Assembly (NCBI GenBank): GCA_963719505.1
Contig: CAVRCF010000001.1
Span: 608,001-672,000 of the forward strand
Reading direction: 5' to 3'
DNA from: Halobacteriovoraceae bacterium
GTDB taxonomy: Bacteria; Bdellovibrionota; Bacteriovoracia; Bacteriovoracales; Bacteriovoracaceae
DNA: 64,000 nt
Numbering within the stretch: position 1 is the first letter of the stretch; every line of letters starts with the position of its first letter. This document shows positions 4,328 through 16,768 of this stretch, in pieces. Both the position numbers and the translations under genes were made by a program. The notes under the pieces were generated by a model. The model searched no databases. It saw nothing but the letters and a program-made list of their open reading frames with translations, and was not told the DNA's origin.

Positions 4328-5155
4328 GTGAATAAATTTATTTTGTCAGCTCTTATGAGCTTAATGGTCACCAATTCCTACGCTTTGGATCTCGATAAGT
4401 ATAAGGAAAAACTAAGAGCTCCCATGGCCAAAATGCTAGGTGAAGAGACAACAAATAAGATTTTGGGCGAAAAAGTAGTAGAGAAGACCAACGCGATGAC
4501 ATTACCGGAAATTCCACAAGTCAAGCTCGATGCTAAAAATGAAAGTTTCTACGATCAAAAAACCAGTGCGGTCTACACTCAAGGTGAAGATTATAATAAC
4601 CTCTCAAATCAAGAGAAAAGAAATTTTAGAATTAAATTTTTAAGGCAGCTCTATTTTGTCACAAGAAATTCGCAACCTAAAGAAAGTGATCTGGCTAAGT
4701 CTCTAAATGTTTTAGAGCAAGGTGGAAATAGAGAGGGAGTATATCGCTCTGTCACACTTGACCAAACTTATTTAGCTCTTGAACAATATGAAGAAAATCC
4801 AAGTGACACATTAATCAATTTTGTTCGATACTTCACACCAAAATATCTAAGAAAAACTTTCGAAGAATCAAGCCTTAGAAAACTGAACCTGTGGTCATTA
4901 AAAAGGCTTCTCACGGAGAAGTGCTTAGAGCTTGTGGATGTACTTGCAAAAAAGCCAGAGGATCTCTATCGTTGGTATGCTGTTTATTCCGCTGAAATTG
5001 CGAAAAATTATCCTGAGCTATGGAAATCAAAAACTCGAGCGAGTACCAGTGATGAGTTCCACTATCGCTGGGCAACCAAAGTACCTTTTCAACATATTAA
5101 ATCAGAAATTATTTTAAAAAATCATCTTCTGATGAACTATTTGCAAAAAAACTAA
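4328..5155 (+). CDS. Secreted hypothetical protein
   Basis: AAGGAG RBS, GTG start, signal peptide ending SYA. Confidence 0.8.
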   Translation: MNKFILSALMSLMVTNSYALDLDKYKEKLRAPMAKMLGEETTNKILGEKVVEKTNAMTLPEIPQVKLDAKNESFYDQKTSAVYTQGEDYNNLSNQEKRNFRIKFLRQLYFVTRNSQPKESDLAKSLNVLEQGGNREGVYRSVTLDQTYLALEQYEENPSDTLINFVRYFTPKYLRKTFEESSLRKLNLWSLKRLLTEKCLELVDVLAKKPEDLYRWYAVYSAEIAKNYPELWKSKTRASTSDEFHYRWATKVPFQHIKSEIILKNHLLMNYLQKN

Positions 5156-6114
5156 TCAAAGAATATTTTTTCGCTTTTGACAATTGAAGCAAATAGTCTC
5201 TCAATTCCTAGGGCAATGCCTGAGGAGTTGGGGTAGCCGTCTTCAATAACTTTTAAAAATCTTTTTGGAGAAGGTAAGGTGTAGTTGTAGGCTTCTTTCT
5301 TTTCAAAAGCTTGAAGCTCAAACCTCTCCTTTTGAGAATTGTAGTCTGTAAGCTCGTTAAAACAATTTGCAATTTCCACTCCTCGAATAAAAAGTTCAAA
5401 TCTTTGGCAAACTCTTTTGTCTTCAGGTTTAAGTGTCGAAAGCGCAGCCAGTGGAGCCGGATATTCATCTACAAAAATGGCTTTCTCTTTGGCAATAATA
5501 GGTTCTATTTCGTTGAGAAATAAAAGAAAAAAATAATCATCCCAGGTACAATCAGTGTTGGGAAGTGGAACTGATTTAAAGTTCTTCTCAATAAGCTTTT
5601 TAAGCTCTTTGGTGTTTAAAAAATTTAAAATATCAATGTTTAAAATATCAATAAAGAGCTCTCTAACTGTAGCTGTTTGAAAGTCTGACTTTTGAAACTT
5701 CTCTTTCACAGGCATTGCCAACGCTTGGGCACGCTGTGAGAGGTCTACTGTTAAATCAATAACATCTTCTTTTATCGAACTATAGTTTTCATGTTTTCTA
5801 TACCATTCACACATAAGAAATTGTGGTCTGTGGATAGGAGATGCTTGTTCATCTCTAAAGCAATAAGTGATAGTAAAAATTTTATCAAACTCTTCTTTAG
5901 AGAGAAGCTCTTTCATAAAAAACTCAGGAGAGGTGTGAAGAAAACTATTTGTTCTTTTTGAGCTGTTGATTGAATATAACTCAAAAGGGTGAATATGAGT
6001 TTCCATGCCAGGGTTCTCCGTCACGGGAGGCGTTAGAACATCTAGAAAACCTTTTGAGACAAAATGATTTCTCATGGCCTGAATAAATTGAAACTGATAT
6101 TTTAAACTCATCAT
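5152..6114 (-). CDS. epmA: EF-P lysine aminoacylase (GenX/PoxA)
   Basis: LysRS-like catalytic domain only: LHTSPEFFMKELL, FRDE, HRPQF.M.EWYR, RFELF, EIAN.F.ELTD, SGIALGIERL; no anticodon-binding domain. Confidence 0.9.
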   Translation of the reverse strand: MMSLKYQFQFIQAMRNHFVSKGFLDVLTPPVTENPGMETHIHPFELYSINSSKRTNSFLHTSPEFFMKELLSKEEFDKIFTITYCFRDEQASPIHRPQFLMCEWYRKHENYSSIKEDVIDLTVDLSQRAQALAMPVKEKFQKSDFQTATVRELFIDILNIDILNFLNTKELKKLIEKNFKSVPLPNTDCTWDDYFFLLFLNEIEPIIAKEKAIFVDEYPAPLAALSTLKPEDKRVCQRFELFIRGVEIANCFNELTDYNSQKERFELQAFEKKEAYNYTLPSPKRFLKVIEDGYPNSSGIALGIERLFASIVKSEKIFFD

Positions 6115-11306: not shown

Positions 11307-14300
11307 ATGAAAGTTATTTTTTATTTATTATTTATTTTTTCATTTTCTGCTATGGCATCAAAAAATCTTGGTCCAGGGTTAGAAACAATTTGTACTGAAA
11401 TTTTAAAAGAAAACTCAGCGAGATCTTTAGTAAAAGATAAAGATCTTTTTGCTGGAGCCATAGATAGAACTTTGAATGTTGCAATTGCTGGTGTGGCAGG
11501 TGCAGTCGCAGGAGAATTAAAATCTAATGAGGCTCAAAAAGGTGAGAAAAAAATAGAAATAAGCGACAGCGATCGGACCAATTTTTTTGAGATAATGAAA
11601 ATTGTGGACTCTAAGACTGATAAGAATAGTAGCTCTAGTGATATTAGAAAAGCCTGTGAAAGTGCTTCTTCAAAAATATTAACTCATAAAAGTGCACAAA
11701 GATTAAACAAATTACTCAAATACGAGGGTTTGGATGAAAACAATTTAGAAAATGATCTGAAACTTTATGGAAAAAAAGACAGACAAAGTGTATCTGCTGG
11801 CGAAACATCAATATCTAAAAGTTCAACGACATGTAAAACAAGCCTTGATCTAAATGGAACTTTTGGTGAGAGTTGTTCTAGGTTGCCAAGCAAGGTTACG
11901 GATCATTCTGGGGACTCAAATGATCAAACTTTTTCACTACTCGATAGATTTTCTTTCGTATATTCAAAAGATATAACATCTTTGTCTGGTAGACCTGAAA
12001 ACTGTGTAAAATGTCTTGAAAAATTTTCTATTTCAAATAAAGGTGCAGAGGGAATTTCTAACGGGTACCAAGTGGCGCAGAACAAAGTAGCAGAAATTTA
12101 CCACGAAAAGATTGTAGAAGGGAAACTTCAACTTGCATTCGCAGCTGCTCAAAACATAGCTGACCTAAGAGCTTCAAGAGAGAAGTTTGCTGACGGCGGC
12201 AATTACTCCCAAAACTGTCTCGAACAAAAAAACTTCGAGTCTTCTTTACGCAAGAAGTGTGGAGATGATGAAAAAAAGCTATTAGAAGCTAAATTGAGAA
12301 TATCTAAAGCCTTAAATTCTATGGGTGACAACTGGTCTATTGAAAATCTACAAGATTCATTTGAAAATGGAACGAGAAAAATTAAATCTGAAAGCTGTAA
12401 AGGGAGTTTCAGTTCGAGAGATGCCTATCAATACTTCTTGATGAATGAGATGTATGCACCCAGCATCAGTGAAGAAGAAGTTACTTTACCTGGCTTAACC
12501 TTAAAACTTGTTGATGAGACAATTAGTAAAACCAATACGATCAGTCAATTCTGTGCTGGATCTGGAAAGAAAACTGGGTCAGTTGATACTCTATTTGAAA
12601 TCATTTTTGCTCAACATATGAATGGTAGTTTAAAGGGTGCACTGACAAAGGTCAACGATAAGTTAAATGAAGAAACAGGTAGACAGCGTGGGGTGTCTAA
12701 TATGGTTCTAGCTTCAGCGGCTTTGGATGAGATGCGAAAAGCCGATCCTTTACTCAGAATGGTATTGCTTAGTGGTGAGTCGTTTTGCGCTTTTCTAGAT
12801 AAAAAACCCGAGGGAGCTTCAGTAGCCTCACTTGTTGTTAATAGTGACCATTTTAGCCCAGAAGAGCTTTTTAATAATCACAAAGAAATTCTGAATGAAT
12901 ATGAAGGTCGATGTACTTCGTATATTGACGAGCTTGTTGAGTCAGCTTGCTCTTCAAATGAAGGCATGGATACTTTGGTAAATAATGTTATGCCAGACCA
13001 AATCAAAGGTTTAATGGATGAGAGAATTGAACAAATACATTCATCTCAAAGGGATCTTTCTGAACTTGAAAAGTCTGAAATTTTAGGAATTGGCAAAATG
13101 AGCTGCGAGGTTAACTCTCTTTCAGGGGGAGATGATGATGGTGTTATTTTTAAACCCTTAAGTGCAAAAGACTCTTTTGAGTATGGACAAATTTCAAAAT
13201 CAGAAATGTCTGATTTATTTCGAAAGAAGCTATCAGAAGAAATGGATAATAGTCGTTACGTAGAATCGGTAAACTTTTTAGATTACAAAGGAGATTTGTT
13301 TTGTGAAGGCAGTGCTGAAGTTCTTGCAGCAAAACAGCATGTTAACTATGACGTTTATGGAGAAGAGCCGGATGAGGACGTCGTTAATGAAAATATTATG
13401 AGAGGCTATATTGAGAATGAGGGATCAGATGGTATTGCCTATCTACCTGACTCAATAGCTAAAAAGCTATCGCAAGGTAAATCCCCTTCTTCTATTCTGA
13501 AAGAAATGGAAGAAAAGAGAAAGGCTAAAACATTAGGGGCAATTCCATCATCGGGATTTGCAAGCACAAAGACCACTGATTCATTACCAGTAAACGAATT
13601 TGCAGAAGAAAAAAATGACCTGACTCAGTCACAGGTTGTATCTTCTTATGTCAATCCAAAAGAGTTTATAGACGAAGTAAAAAAAATGGACTCAGAAGAA
13701 AAACTTATAGATGATCTCGTATCAGGTAATTCTGAAGCGGATCAATTGGAAAAAGCCTTAGCTAAAGATAGATTAAAAGAACAAGATAAGCTCGATGAAT
13801 TGAATAGACAGCTTGCTGAGATAGAAAAAAAGATAGCGGATGCAAAAAAAGCGGAACAGTCAAGAAAGGCCAGTGAGCTTGAAGATCAAAAGAAAAAAAT
13901 TAAAGAAGAAATTGCAAGCACGCAAAAGAACTTGAACTTTTTAGACAAAGAAAACCAAAAACTTGCAGATAAGAGATATGAAGAAAAAATTAAGGACTAC
14001 GATAGAAAGCCTTCTGGTATCGCGGAAAATAAAGTCGATTCAAATACTGGAAGCTTTCGTCGAGGTAGAACCTCTAACCAGGCAGGCGCTCAATTGAGTG
14101 ATGTTGTCAAAAGTGTAAACGACCAAGTTAACGAGCAGACAAACTTCATAAAGCTTGAAGTCGCACCGTCAGAAATCTTATCCATCATAAAAAACGTCGA
14201 TGCTAGCGGAATTGATACATTATTTCTTGGAGAGAATAAAGATGAGCTTCGTTTTATAAAGATTCCAGGTCAGACTAACTATATTGATGTCAGGCTTCTT

Positions 14301-14528
14301 GATGAGGATACGCGGAAAGAACTTTTCAAAAAACTGGAAATTTCTAGTTCTAGCATTGTAGAAAGTGGAAAAGAAGCGAGAGAGAAAATTGATAAAATAG
14401 TTGAAGATTCTAAAAAAGATGGCGGAAGAAAAGTTTTATTTGAAAACTTAACTTCTTTTATAAAATCATCTGTGGCTTCTGGAGATAAGCAAGCGGCTGC
14501 GATAGCTGCTAGTGAAATACTTAAGTGA
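11307..14528 (+). CDS. Large secreted Cys-rich hypothetical protein with C-terminal coiled coil
   Basis: 1073 aa; signal peptide ending AMA; many dispersed Cys in the N-terminal two thirds; charged coiled coil around aa 810-900. Confidence 0.85.
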   Translation: MKVIFYLLFIFSFSAMASKNLGPGLETICTEILKENSARSLVKDKDLFAGAIDRTLNVAIAGVAGAVAGELKSNEAQKGEKKIEISDSDRTNFFEIMKIVDSKTDKNSSSSDIRKACESASSKILTHKSAQRLNKLLKYEGLDENNLENDLKLYGKKDRQSVSAGETSISKSSTTCKTSLDLNGTFGESCSRLPSKVTDHSGDSNDQTFSLLDRFSFVYSKDITSLSGRPENCVKCLEKFSISNKGAEGISNGYQVAQNKVAEIYHEKIVEGKLQLAFAAAQNIADLRASREKFADGGNYSQNCLEQKNFESSLRKKCGDDEKKLLEAKLRISKALNSMGDNWSIENLQDSFENGTRKIKSESCKGSFSSRDAYQYFLMNEMYAPSISEEEVTLPGLTLKLVDETISKTNTISQFCAGSGKKTGSVDTLFEIIFAQHMNGSLKGALTKVNDKLNEETGRQRGVSNMVLASAALDEMRKADPLLRMVLLSGESFCAFLDKKPEGASVASLVVNSDHFSPEELFNNHKEILNEYEGRCTSYIDELVESACSSNEGMDTLVNNVMPDQIKGLMDERIEQIHSSQRDLSELEKSEILGIGKMSCEVNSLSGGDDDGVIFKPLSAKDSFEYGQISKSEMSDLFRKKLSEEMDNSRYVESVNFLDYKGDLFCEGSAEVLAAKQHVNYDVYGEEPDEDVVNENIMRGYIENEGSDGIAYLPDSIAKKLSQGKSPSSILKEMEEKRKAKTLGAIPSSGFASTKTTDSLPVNEFAEEKNDLTQSQVVSSYVNPKEFIDEVKKMDSEEKLIDDLVSGNSEADQLEKALAKDRLKEQDKLDELNRQLAEIEKKIADAKKAEQSRKASELEDQKKKIKEEIASTQKNLNFLDKENQKLADKRYEEKIKDYDRKPSGIAENKVDSNTGSFRRGRTSNQAGAQLSDVVKSVNDQVNEQTNFIKLEVAPSEILSIIKNVDASGIDTLFLGENKDELRFIKIPGQTNYIDVRLLDEDTRKELFKKLEISSSSIVESGKEAREKIDKIVEDSKKDGGRKVLFENLTSFIKSSVASGDKQAAAIAASEILK

Positions 14529-14920
14529 TAACTATAAATGTCGCAATTGTCATACCTTTTAGATTTAAAGAATCTATGGAGGTTTGGATGCAAAAGCGAA
14601 ATTCAAAAGATGAATTAAATGGCCTATTAGAATTTCCAGGTGGAAAGATTGAAGCTGGTGAGGACCCAAAAGCTGCTGCGATAAGGGAGACTTTAGAGGA
14701 GACAGGTGTAACTTTAGCTGCCTCAAAGCTTAAATTGGTTAAAGTCTATGACGATATAAAAGCCACCAAGACAGTCAAATTAAATATATTCGCCTACGAA
14801 GATAATGATGAGTTTTTAAACTCTTGGTTCAGTGAGCCTGAAGAATATTGGTCTTTAATCCCTCCAGCGAATCAAACCTTTCTTAAAGAAGTCTTAAGTC
14901 TCTTGAAAACAATGACTTAG
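14525..14920 (+). CDS. MutT-like NUDIX hydrolase
   Basis: EFPGGKIEAGE...AAIRETLEETG; PPAN; GTGA overlap with the upstream stop. Confidence 0.85.
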   Translation: MITINVAIVIPFRFKESMEVWMQKRNSKDELNGLLEFPGGKIEAGEDPKAAAIRETLEETGVTLAASKLKLVKVYDDIKATKTVKLNIFAYEDNDEFLNSWFSEPEEYWSLIPPANQTFLKEVLSLLKTMT

Positions 14921-14945
14921 GTGATGCCGCAGAGTAACAACTGAA

Positions 14946-14974
14946 TAGACTGAAATGCTCTTTTGAGCTATACT
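14946..14974 (+). promoter_or_regulatory. sigma70-type promoter of the CNNM/CorC gene (long leader)
   Basis: TAGACT-N17-TATACT. Confidence 0.6.
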
Positions 14975-15028
14975 TAATTCTAGAAATATGATTTATTTCA
15001 CTTTTATAAACCTACAAGGAGCTGGACC

Positions 15029-15103
15029 ATAGAGCCCCCATCGAATAATTCAAACTTACAAAAATCACTCTTTAAATATATAGTAAATCTTGGGAGTCTT
15101 TAA
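15029..15103 (+). CDS. Putative 24-codon leader peptide with ATA start (IEPPSNNSNLQKSLFKYIVNLGSL)
   Basis: AAGGAG at 15016-15021, 7 nt before ATA; TAA directly abuts the downstream GTG start. Confidence 0.4.
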   Translation: MEPPSNNSNLQKSLFKYIVNLGSL

Positions 15104-16450
15104 GTGACTTCTCAAACTCAGGATATAATAATTTTTATTACCGGAGTAATCCTTTCTGCTGTTTTTTCAGGATCGGAAGCCGCTCTCATTAGTATCCCTG
15201 CGAAAAGGGTAAAGCAGTTGATCGAAGAGGGAGGAAGCAGAGCAAACGCTTTTAGATTCCTCGCTGAAAAACCTTCTGAAATTCTCACCACTATTCTTAT
15301 TGGAAACAACTTTGTTAATATCTTTGTTGCTTCATTAGCAACGACAATAGCTCAAAACTACTTTGACGATGACGCTATATCTTACTCAGTTGGTGGTACG
15401 ACTATCTTAATTCTTATATTTGGTGAAATTATTCCAAAAACTTTTGCCCGTAATCATTCTGAAAGACTTGCACTGCCTATCATTAGACTTCTCCAGTTTT
15501 TGTACTACGCAATGTTCCCTGTGGTAAAAATCTTTATGTTTGTTATTGAAGCTGTCCTTGGAAAAAATGCTCAGCTTGCTGAAAGACTTGTCACAAAAGA
15601 TGACATCGAGTTTTTAGTTAATGAGGCTGAAAAAGAGAAGACCATCGATTCAAAGCAAATTGACTTATTGACATCAATCCTTGAATTCCCAATGATAAAA
15701 GTTAAAGACATAATGGTTCCAAGAACCAAGGTTCACGCTATAAAGAAAGAAGCTAGCTTTCGAGAGGTTATTGATCTTGTCAAAGAAGTGGCCCATAGTC
15801 GTTACCCTGTTATGGAAGAAGACTTAGATTCAGTTTTGGGCTTTCTCCACGTTAAAGACATCTCATTTGTTGAGCCCGAAGATAGGGATAAATTCAATGT
15901 TGAAGATCATTTAAAAGATACATTTTTTGTTTATGAGCATATGAAAATTCAAGCAGTCTTTGATCATATGAATAGAAAAAAGGTTCATTTGGCGCTTGTA
16001 AAAGATGAGAATGGACTTGTCGTTGGTATTGTTACTCTTGAAGATATTATGGAAGAAATTTTTGGTGAAATTCAAGATGAGCATGATGATGAGGATGACG
16101 GAATTCCAAAACTCTCTGAACATCAGTTAGAAAATGGACTTGTCGTTCCAGCTGAAATTAGTTTAAGAGATTTAAAAAATGAGTACGATATCGAAATACC
16201 TCTAAACGATAATTACTCCACCCTTCGAGGCTTTTTATTAGATATGCTTGGAAACAATTTCCCGCAGACTGGTAATATTCTCTTTTGGGAAGGTCTATCT
16301 TTTAATCTGCTTAAAGTCGTTGATAAAGAAATCGAAGAAGTTAAAATCGAAAGTACTGATGGTGAAAGATATATTACAAGTAGAAGTGAGGAAGAGGCTA
16401 AAGAAACTTCACTAGAAGACTTTGAAGTCGCAAAGGAAACTATTAATTAA
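15104..16450 (+). CDS. HlyC/CorC (CNNM, DUF21-CBS-CorC) family Mg2+/Co2+ transporter
   Basis: FSGSEAALIS, ILIGNN, IFGEIIPK, CBS pair (HSRYPV, GIVTLEDIMEEIFGEIQDEHD), CorC C-terminal domain. Confidence 0.93.
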   Translation: MTSQTQDIIIFITGVILSAVFSGSEAALISIPAKRVKQLIEEGGSRANAFRFLAEKPSEILTTILIGNNFVNIFVASLATTIAQNYFDDDAISYSVGGTTILILIFGEIIPKTFARNHSERLALPIIRLLQFLYYAMFPVVKIFMFVIEAVLGKNAQLAERLVTKDDIEFLVNEAEKEKTIDSKQIDLLTSILEFPMIKVKDIMVPRTKVHAIKKEASFREVIDLVKEVAHSRYPVMEEDLDSVLGFLHVKDISFVEPEDRDKFNVEDHLKDTFFVYEHMKIQAVFDHMNRKKVHLALVKDENGLVVGIVTLEDIMEEIFGEIQDEHDDEDDGIPKLSEHQLENGLVVPAEISLRDLKNEYDIEIPLNDNYSTLRGFLLDMLGNNFPQTGNILFWEGLSFNLLKVVDKEIEEVKIESTDGERYITSRSEEEAKETSLEDFEVAKETIN

Positions 16451-16768
16451 CTATTTAAGCTTGGTGAATTCAAAGTCACCAAGGACTCTTGCTCGACAAG
16501 ACAGTCTAATGACCTTATCTTTTGCAGTTCCAGCTCCATTCATCCTTTCATAGTTCTGTTTAATGGCTTCAATAGTATTTTTCTCAATTTCTGAGGGAGC
16601 TTTTAAGTTCTCTGCACCGCTCACAATTTCAACCTTACATGCACCGCAAGAACCTGCGAGACAGCCATGAGGTAATTGTTCACCTGCATCGTCCAAAGCA
16701 TCGAAAAGAATAGAGTTTTCATCGACTTGGTAGCTTAGAGATTTATCTTTAAATGACACTGTGGGCAT
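16451..16768 (-). CDS. 2Fe-2S ferredoxin
   Basis: GCLAGSCGAC ... RLSC. Confidence 0.9.
   Translation of the reverse strand: MPTVSFKDKSLSYQVDENSILFDALDDAGEQLPHGCLAGSCGACKVEIVSGAENLKAPSEIEKNTIEAIKQNYERMNGAGTAKDKVIRLSCRARVLGDFEFTKLK

Follow-up and report, generated by a model that had tools for sequence, protein, structure and literature searches.

A putative AUA/AUC-initiated Glu-Pro-Pro leader coupled or fused to a CNNM/CorC transporter gene in the Bacteriovoracaceae

In the predatory Bacteriovoracaceae, the gene of a membrane transporter with CNNM, CBS-pair and CorC_HlyC domains (hereafter CorC) is preceded by a short open reading frame (ORF) that combines a strong Shine-Dalgarno (SD) sequence with a first codon ATA or ATC, directly followed by codons for Glu-Pro-Pro (E-P-P), and that ends at the start of CorC or runs into it without a stop. 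The element was noticed in a 64,000-nucleotide stretch from a Halobacteriovoraceae bacterium (GCA_963719505.1, contig CAVRCF010000001.1, forward-strand positions 608,001 to 672,000), which is called the window below and whose first letter is position 1. An SD-like site with X-Pro-Pro (X-P-P) at codons 2-4 is present at 163 of 185 unique CorC loci of the family. As judged by comparison of sequences, the leader is very probably a translated upstream ORF (uORF) that starts at AUA or AUC and is coupled to CorC. On balance, we favour the reading that it acts as an N-terminal Glu/Pro sensor similar to MgtL, translated from a weak start and positively coupled to the synthesis of an exporter.

The leader ORF in the window

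The plus strand of the window carries the SD sequence AAGGAG (15016-15021), which is separated by a 7-nt spacer (CTGGACC) from the triplet ATA (15029-15031). Conservation among relatives suggests this ATA as the near-cognate start of a leader ORF of 24 codons and a TAA stop (IEPPSNNSNLQKSLFKYIVNLGSL; 15029-15103, TAA at 15101-15103). The codons behind it, GAG CCC CCA TCG (15032-15043), read Glu-Pro-Pro-Ser and represent the proposed sensor motif. An SD-like site of the CorC gene, GGGAG (15092-15096), lies within the leader ORF 7 nt upstream of the GTG start of the transporter gene (15104-16450, plus strand, 448 aa). The TAA of the leader directly abuts this GTG at 15104, the leader is in frame with the CorC ORF, and there is no in-frame ATG, GTG or TTG between the preceding stop and the ATA. 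All these elements, from the SD sequence and the EPPS codons to the in-frame small ORF that covers GGGAG and adjoins GTG, had been pointed out in an initial annotation made from the letters alone, and they can be read directly in the sequence.

The downstream gene has the expected domain order of CNNM (PF01595, 3.9e-43), CBS pair (PF00571, 5.2e-16, in two stretches) and CorC_HlyC (PF03471, 1.9e-11). As position 2 of the CNNM profile matches residue 10 of the ORF, and as the same aligned start position, mostly ATG, is found in 30 CorC orthologues, GTG 15104 is the true start of CorC, and hence the small frame in front of it is not a mis-called N-terminus.

Conservation in the family

A first sample was built from the CorC orthologue with its flanks in 40 related genomes and then 80 loci from named genome records. 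It comprised 58 unique loci of the family, that is Bacteriovorax, Peredibacter and Halobacteriovorax metagenome-assembled genomes and isolates, and 44 loci outside the family for comparison. A plain regular expression, GAR-CCN-CCN, was searched upstream of CorC without any selection on where the ORF ends. A recurring arrangement was found, in which an SD-like site is followed after 6-10 nt by ATA or ATC, by Glu-Pro-Pro and by an unrelated tail, and 52 of the 58 family loci possess such an ORF. The triplet in front of the 43 unique GAR-CCN-CCN occurrences at these loci is always ATA (34) or ATC (9), and all hits of the expression end between -20 and +11 nt from the aligned CorC start. The motif was found at none of the 44 loci outside the Bacteriovoracaceae. 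A loosely defined ORF with an SD sequence and an ATH first codon that ends near the CorC start occurs at 11 of these 44 loci, which gives the chance background, and E-P-P is present in none of the 11. Locus L065 was added by eye to the count of the first sample, and seven secondary candidate ORFs (ESLTR, SNNSL, FVEKP, VQVET, YLTGV, FMPAN and MLAGV) at loci with two candidates were removed by hand.

The family-wide survey started from 237 species genomes, of which 222 had a CorC match. It covered the upstream regions of every listed CorC place together with all of genus g20, and about 40 matched genomes lie outside the sample. After removal of four of the 222 family loci with less than 100 nt upstream (L004, L148, L168 and L250) and of 33 duplicates, 185 unique loci remained. 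Nineteen short loci without a tblastn hit were oriented from the place list, and their translation into the conserved N-terminus was checked. As first codons, ATA, ATC, ATT, ATG, GTG, TTG and CTG were allowed. A candidate ORF was required to have an SD-like 4-mer 3-11 nt upstream and at least 10 codons, and to end between -25 and +15 nt of the CorC start or to be fused in frame with CorC; where a locus offered several candidates, the one richest in Pro and Asp/Glu at codons 2-4 was retained. A pattern-only survey of the 237 family genomes was discarded and used for no count, because it was too loose and a reversed control pattern matched many genomes.

By these rules, a candidate ORF is present at 176 of the 185 loci. 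At the 163 loci with an SD-like site and X-P-P, the tripeptide is EPP in 156 cases, KPP in four and NPP in three, and 55 of them carry a further Glu at codon 6. Of the 163 loci, 147 have an AAGGA, AGGAG or AAGGAG core, and 146 have the end of the GGA core at a distance of 7-10 nt from the start. Across the family, no other letters of the intergenic region are conserved as strongly as the SD sequence, the non-AUG start and E-P-P. Conservation of the SD sequence, ATA and EPPS in relatives was one of the tests that the initial annotation had set for its own proposal, and the outcome is in its favour. The tail of the leader peptide is not conserved, and the coupled leaders range from 14 to 48 codons (median 27) with unrelated tails, so that a conserved small protein was rejected as explanation. 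In a tree, the coupled E-P-P form extends across the whole family with scattered losses.

A search of both strands of the 3.69-Mb genome finds the composite pattern SD-N4-9-ATH-GAR-CCN-CCN just once, at the site in the window. This single occurrence marks it as a dedicated element of the CorC gene and not as a signal of a regulon, for which further copies of the motif were looked for across the 3.69 Mb and none was found.

Translation from AUA or AUC

The first codon of the 163 X-P-P leaders is ATA in 133 cases and ATC in 30, and ATT, ATG, GTG, TTG and CTG do not occur there, though all of them were allowed. Within the motif, variation is largely confined to third codon positions, the first and second being near-invariant. 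Codon 2 is GAA (117) or GAG (39), the first proline codon (Pro3) is CCC (101) or CCT (62), the second (Pro4) is CCG (111), CCA (20), CCC (19) or CCT (13), and a serine at codon 5 is written both as TCN (74) and as AGT (9). A canonical start further upstream in the leader frame was also considered and rejected, because an in-frame ATG, GTG or TTG is absent upstream at 135 of the 163 loci and one with an SD-like site before it is present at only 5. While ATT makes up 54% of the isoleucine codons in 896 long ORFs of the genome, it is found at none of the 163 leader first codons, which thus do not behave as ordinary isoleucine codons. Taken together with the fused forms described below, the substitutions of codon type, the frame that is open to the CorC start and the lack of an upstream canonical start argue that the leader is translated from AUA.

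An arrangement of this kind is also seen at infC, the gene of initiation factor 3 (IF3), in the same genome (L276; contig C5:984847-985359, minus strand, outside the window). There, GGAGGT-N5-ATA stands in frame, with the ATA 36 nt before the first profile-matched residue, and the in-frame ATGs further upstream have no SD sequence. IF3 of this genome therefore probably starts at AUA, as reported for S. aureus, so that AUA initiation in this organism is probably not confined to the leader.

Coupling and fusion to CorC

All 137 coupled ORFs of the full set end between -8 and +13 nt from the CorC start, and in 68 of them stop and start codon overlap as NTGA. At 19 of 43 coupled CorC starts, there is no SD-like 4-mer, which lends indirect support to a dependence of CorC translation on the uORF, as does the retention of its start in the fused clade described below. 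The adjacency of stop and start that had been expected from the window is hence only partly a family trait: the overlap is conserved, most often in the form NTGA, and the in-frame abutment TAA-GTG is particular to this genome.

At a further 26 loci, ATA-(E/N)-P-P stands in frame with CorC without an intervening stop. Twelve of these fused loci contain no in-frame ATG, GTG or TTG in about 50 codons of sequence, and at nine the first such codon comes at codon 34 or later, past the conserved first membrane helix. As 21 of the 26 fused loci thus lack a canonical codon before codon 34, the full-length transporter would have to be made there from ATA, and it is likely that the ATA of the 26 fused loci is the start of CorC itself. 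In a FastTree phylogeny of the transporter, from which the N-terminal columns were left out and L065 was dropped as too short, the six fused loci of the first sample form one clade, which lies within the coupled forms and has as its sister group two loci with short leaders of 18-19 codons. Since CorC would be made from the same start in the fused form, its synthesis should rise and fall with translation of the uORF, and the coupled and fused architectures together argue for the direction of control. We therefore infer a positive coupling of the leader to CorC synthesis.

Structure of the leader RNA and candidate promoters

A scan of 14400-15600 by E-value against Rfam 15 gave four chance-level matches only, all far below the gathering scores, so that neither the M-box nor another riboswitch or leader family is matched, and a terminator scan revealed no terminator-like site or hairpin at the leader. 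Compared with dinucleotide shuffles, the leader of the window folds with z = +0.60, and 60 leaders drawn at random from the 137 coupled ones have a mean z of +0.73, with two of 60 below -2. As the leaders are less structured than their shuffles, a structure-based switch was dropped. The sequestration of an SD sequence by the CCUCC-like proline codons was likewise rejected, because CCC at Pro3, found at 101 of the 163 loci, breaks this pairing. In having neither terminator nor structure, the element resembles a sensor based on intrinsic ribosome destabilization (IRD) and not an attenuator of the mgtL type.

Two promoter-like sites were found by a consensus scan on the plus strand, TAGACT-17 nt-TATACT (14946-14974) and TTGAGC-18 nt-TATGAT (14963-14992), with 9 of 12 matches each. 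Both hexamers of the former are also present in the closest relative, L002. The -10 element of the latter ends 36 nt before ATA, a distance that falls among those of the relatives, whose -10-like hexamers are scattered from 20 to about 80 nt before ATA. For the sigma70 promoter named in the initial annotation there are two candidate sites, but both are weak, and the scan of the region yielded seven sites compared with 3.3 +/- 2.0 in shuffles. A promoter and a leader of about 120 nt at this locus are plausible.

Comparison with known leaders and sensors

The nearest parallels are found among enterobacterial Mg2+ transport genes. MgtL controls an importer by means of alternative RNA structures and transcription termination, and the gene is switched on by failed translation of the leader. 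In E. coli MgtL, the EPDP behind the initiator Met aborts translation within MEPDPT, and does so more strongly when Mg2+ is low or bL31 is missing; once the tunnel is filled by a nascent chain, IRD is counteracted, so that N-terminal motifs alone are effective (10.1101/2021.02.02.429294). The Bacteriovoracaceae leader shares with MgtL that it is a short leader ORF of a gene of Mg2+ transport (presumed in the case of CorC) and that acidic and proline residues follow the initiator, with (fM)EPPS compared to MEPDPT. It differs in that the gene codes for an exporter instead of an importer, which makes the expected sign opposite, in that no significant structure or terminator is present and the output would be set by translational coupling or fusion, and in its start codon, which is a normal initiator Met in the MgtL described and never AUG here. 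Moreover, the two belong to different phyla, and four common residues cannot show homology.

On the exporter side, the N-terminus of E. coli ybeX (corC) contains a destabilizing sequence, and its authors propose that high Mg2+ raises the synthesis of the efflux pump (10.1101/2021.02.02.429294; repeated in PMC12421838). In that case, a CorC-family gene itself carries at its N-terminus the residues that cause early loss of ribosomes, and the 26 fused loci have the same layout. YbeX is a soluble CBS/CorC protein without the CNNM membrane domain (PMC12421838), though, and its motif is rich in acidic residues with Ser/Thr and is not E-P-P; the parts of these sources that deal with YbeX describe no non-AUG start and no separate coupled uORF. 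In Salmonella, high Mg2+ induces corC and mgpA, and translation of mgpA is supported by the leader peptide YoaL, which overlaps the sequence in front of this gene (PMC12421838). This case resembles the present one in the small leader ORF that overlaps the upstream region of a high-Mg2+-induced gene of a CorC-domain exporter, mgpA (yoaE) of Salmonella and E. coli, and also in the positive coupling, as indicated by a lowered MgpA translation when the start codon of YoaL is changed to a stop (PMC12421838). MgpA possesses a TerC membrane domain in place of CNNM (PMC12421838). Finally, mgtQ, which precedes mgtB in Salmonella, is a very short uORF with destabilizing acidic codons that controls the translation of a Mg2+ transporter; in this case, the ribosome-binding site of mgtB is freed from an inhibitory stem-loop and an importer is made at low Mg2+ (PMC8092293), whereas the leader described here is unstructured and belongs to an exporter. 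The initial annotation had relied on proline-codon leader peptides and on EF-P-dependent stalling at XPP. As regards the latter, IRD by Glu/Asp/Pro, as in MEPDPT of MgtL and in YbeX/CorC, is at least as close a precedent.

For the start codon, the conserved AUA and AUU starts of S. aureus provide the best comparison, which together with an extended SD sequence give about 10% of the output of AUG (PMC13009471). These AUH starts (infC; ccpN, citZ and cvfC1 of S. aureus) share with the leader the strong or extended SD sequence, the optimal spacing and a conserved codon that lowers output and is sensitive to fidelity (PMC13009471). They differ as starts of full-length proteins, and a leader peptide that combines a weak start with a sensor motif acting on elongation is not among the cases in the part of that paper used here.

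A full-text search of the literature on CorC/CNNM leaders, AUA/AUC starts, IRD uORFs and Bacteriovorax, with subscription-only papers outside its scope, returned no description of the element, in agreement with its presentation as undescribed in the initial annotation. What appears to be new is a presumed sensor peptide of the MgtL/IRD kind that has an obligatory non-AUG start, works by coupling or fusion and not by RNA structure, serves an exporter and is found in a different phylum. Detailed knowledge of Mg2+-sensing N-terminal Glu/Asp/Pro leaders is limited to enterobacterial importers such as MgtL, and for exporters there is only the proposal made for E. coli YbeX. The Bacteriovoracaceae would add a family-wide natural example from a distant phylum that is wired oppositely, to an exporter, and without RNA structure. 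With AUA or AUC as the first codon of all 163 X-P-P leaders, the family would also illustrate with unusual clarity how a bacterial leader peptide can use a non-AUG start for regulation. Gene callers miss the leader ORF, and in the fused clade they would mis-start or truncate the CorC gene.

A possible mechanism

In the mechanism that we propose, the strong SD sequence would bring ribosomes to the weak near-cognate start, AUA in this genome and AUC in some relatives. The first peptide bonds would then be those of fMet-Glu-Pro-Pro, an acidic/proline motif of the MgtL type that should be hard to translate as long as the exit tunnel is empty. Ribosomes that get past the motif would traverse the arbitrary tail and terminate on or next to the CorC start, from where CorC would be translated by termination-reinitiation or by opening of the start site; in one clade, the tail would have been lost and the same start and motif fused straight to CorC. 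Exporter output would hence equal AUA initiation multiplied by passage through E-P-P. Both steps would be favoured by the stabilization of ribosomes at high Mg2+ (or by polyamines), so that an excess of cations would lead to more exporter and scarcity to less. High Mg2+ relaxes start-codon discrimination in vitro. The sequences themselves show the layout and its conservation, the substitutions of coding type, the geometry of the coupling, the fused forms and the lack of RNA structure, whereas initiation at AUA or AUC, abortion or pausing of translation at E-P-P and the role of Mg2+ as signal are inferred. The balance tips slightly towards a leader that senses Mg2+ or ribosome stability in the way described. 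The family of the transporter also includes polyamine exporters, and a sensor of ribosome stability would suit either Mg2+ or a polyamine.

A more far-reaching idea, which we regard as speculative and rather doubtful, assigns half of the sensing to the near-cognate start itself. The mismatched pairing of the initiator tRNA would make the formation or survival of the 70S complex steeply dependent on Mg2+ and on proofreading by IF3, fMet-Glu-Pro-Pro in rare proline codons would serve as a second Mg2+ checkpoint, and both together would constitute a structure-free and protein-free "magnesium-stat" of about 30 nt. If this were true, the device would multiply two checkpoints of ribosome stability and could be attached to a gene by a stop/start overlap or by fusion. 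An element that is so compact and portable, about 30 nt, could also serve to study how Mg2+ or ribosome stability is reflected in the fidelity of initiation and in early elongation.

Alternative explanations and points against the proposed sensor

The same coupled uORF could sense the activity of elongation factor P (EF-P), the supply of proline or tRNA-Pro, or the general translation capacity instead of Mg2+. A Pro-Pro in rare codons would then pause ribosomes in an EF-P-dependent manner and thereby set the number that reaches the CorC start. X-P-P is the classic EF-P-dependent motif, EF-P is encoded in the genome (239.9 bits, above the cut-off), and the codons chosen, with only CCC or CCT at Pro3 and CCG at Pro4 in 111 of 163 leaders compared with 8.6% genome-wide, suggest that decoding speed or tRNA-Pro matters. 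The window also contains a 320-aa ORF (5152-6114, minus strand), a truncated class-II Lys-tRNA-synthetase paralogue that the initial annotation had called epmA and mentioned together with the leader. EpmA is in fact its best NCBIfam match, but the scores are below both cut-offs (TIGR00462, 265.7 bits compared with 286.9; NF006828, 232.9 compared with 264), the gene lies 9 kb away, and no link to the leader was found. There is no obvious physiological reason that would tie a CNNM cation exporter to the status of proline or EF-P, and the Glu before the prolines in 156 of the 163 leaders, together with the frequent Glu at codon 6 (55 of 163), fits destabilization by acidic and proline residues better than a bare polyproline stall. 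We thus consider this explanation improbable as a replacement of the Mg2+ sensor; an EF-P-dependent pause at Pro-Pro and acidic/proline destabilization do not exclude each other, and the pause is a compatible alternative or addition. It is also conceivable that nothing is sensed at all and that the weak start and the coupling constitutively hold an exporter that may be toxic at a low and steady level, with E-P-P as a further fixed brake. Such a device would profit from the lowering of output by non-canonical starts, which is about ten-fold in the S. aureus cases (PMC13009471); coupled leader ORFs are common means of setting expression, and ten lineages retain the ATA- or ATC-started coupled ORF after the strict X-P-P has been lost. 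A weak SD sequence or a weak promoter would suffice for this purpose, though, so that the family-wide purifying selection on a strong SD sequence with a weak start and E-P-P, which continues after fusion, would be left unexplained, and the resemblance to the Mg2+-responsive MgtL and YbeX would have to be a coincidence. For these reasons, a purely constitutive function appears quite improbable.

The conserved letters could, furthermore, represent an untranslated site in RNA or DNA that is bound by a protein or a small RNA or is a piece of an unknown riboswitch, with the open frame being incidental. A constraint at the nucleotide level does exist, as CCA and CCG do not occur at Pro3, nor ATT as first codon, and CCUCC, which resembles an anti-SD sequence, is present at 62 of the 163 loci. 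The anti-SD-like pairing is, however, broken by CCC at Pro3 in the remaining majority noted above, and the variation at third codon positions and the encoding of serine by two unrelated codon families are those of a translated sequence. In all 137 coupled cases an open frame of 14-48 codons leads up to the CorC start, where it stops, in 26 loci the site forms the N-terminus of CorC itself, and the leaders are less structured than shuffles and have no Rfam match. We therefore hold an untranslated site to be extremely improbable.

Several observations weigh against the proposed Mg2+ sensor itself. X-P-P is absent from 22 of the 185 family loci, so that some lineages manage without E-P-P; at nine loci no candidate ORF was found, and at ten an ATA- or ATC-started coupled ORF is kept whose motif is degraded (KVP three times; KRP, KFL, ESP, EPS, DPL and RPT once each). 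All counts cover related genomes and not independent events. An SD-like 4-mer of its own is present at 24 of the 43 coupled CorC starts, so that some uORF-independent translation is possible, and five of the 26 fused loci have an in-frame TTG, GTG or ATG at codons 8-22. As to the substrate, every NCBIfam match of the CorC gene (GldE subfamily, PRK11573, PaeA as a polyamine exporter, and CorC) scores below cut-off, and Mg2+ as its cargo is presumed from family membership. Finally, the choice of codons is not explained by the peptide alone: in addition to the absence of ATT as first codon, Pro3 is restricted to CCC and CCT, although CCA is the codon of 40% of prolines in the genome, and Pro4 is mostly the rare CCG. 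This bias points to some constraint on nucleotides or tRNAs that lies beyond the proposed model, and the device may include codons that are rare or slowly read, or certain tRNA-Pro species.

Neighbouring genes

Downstream of CorC, a convergent ORF on the minus strand (16451-16768) encodes a 105-aa 2Fe-2S ferredoxin-like protein (Pfam Fer2), whose stop codon starts at the very next base behind the CorC stop, so that there is no space for a separate terminator between the two genes. On the upstream side, a 1073-aa ORF (11307-14528, plus strand) has a signal-peptide-like N-terminus and a long Lys/Glu-rich coiled region and gave no Pfam match at E <= 0.001, and its stop overlaps the GTG start of a NUDIX gene (14525-14920), which is the upstream neighbour of the leader. 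This neighbour differs at L016, L017, L020, L023 and L065, where a small conserved ORF that ends in ...(F/H)(D/N)HEMNDRI(V/I)YSDH(D/N)F(H/K)GKPL is found instead of the NUDIX gene. L016 and L023 are without a leader ORF and L020 is without an ATA- or ATC-started one, and the leader is retained at L017 and L065 as well as in the rest of the fused clade, to which these two belong. As the neighbour changes while the leader can stay, the synteny upstream of the leader is not fixed.

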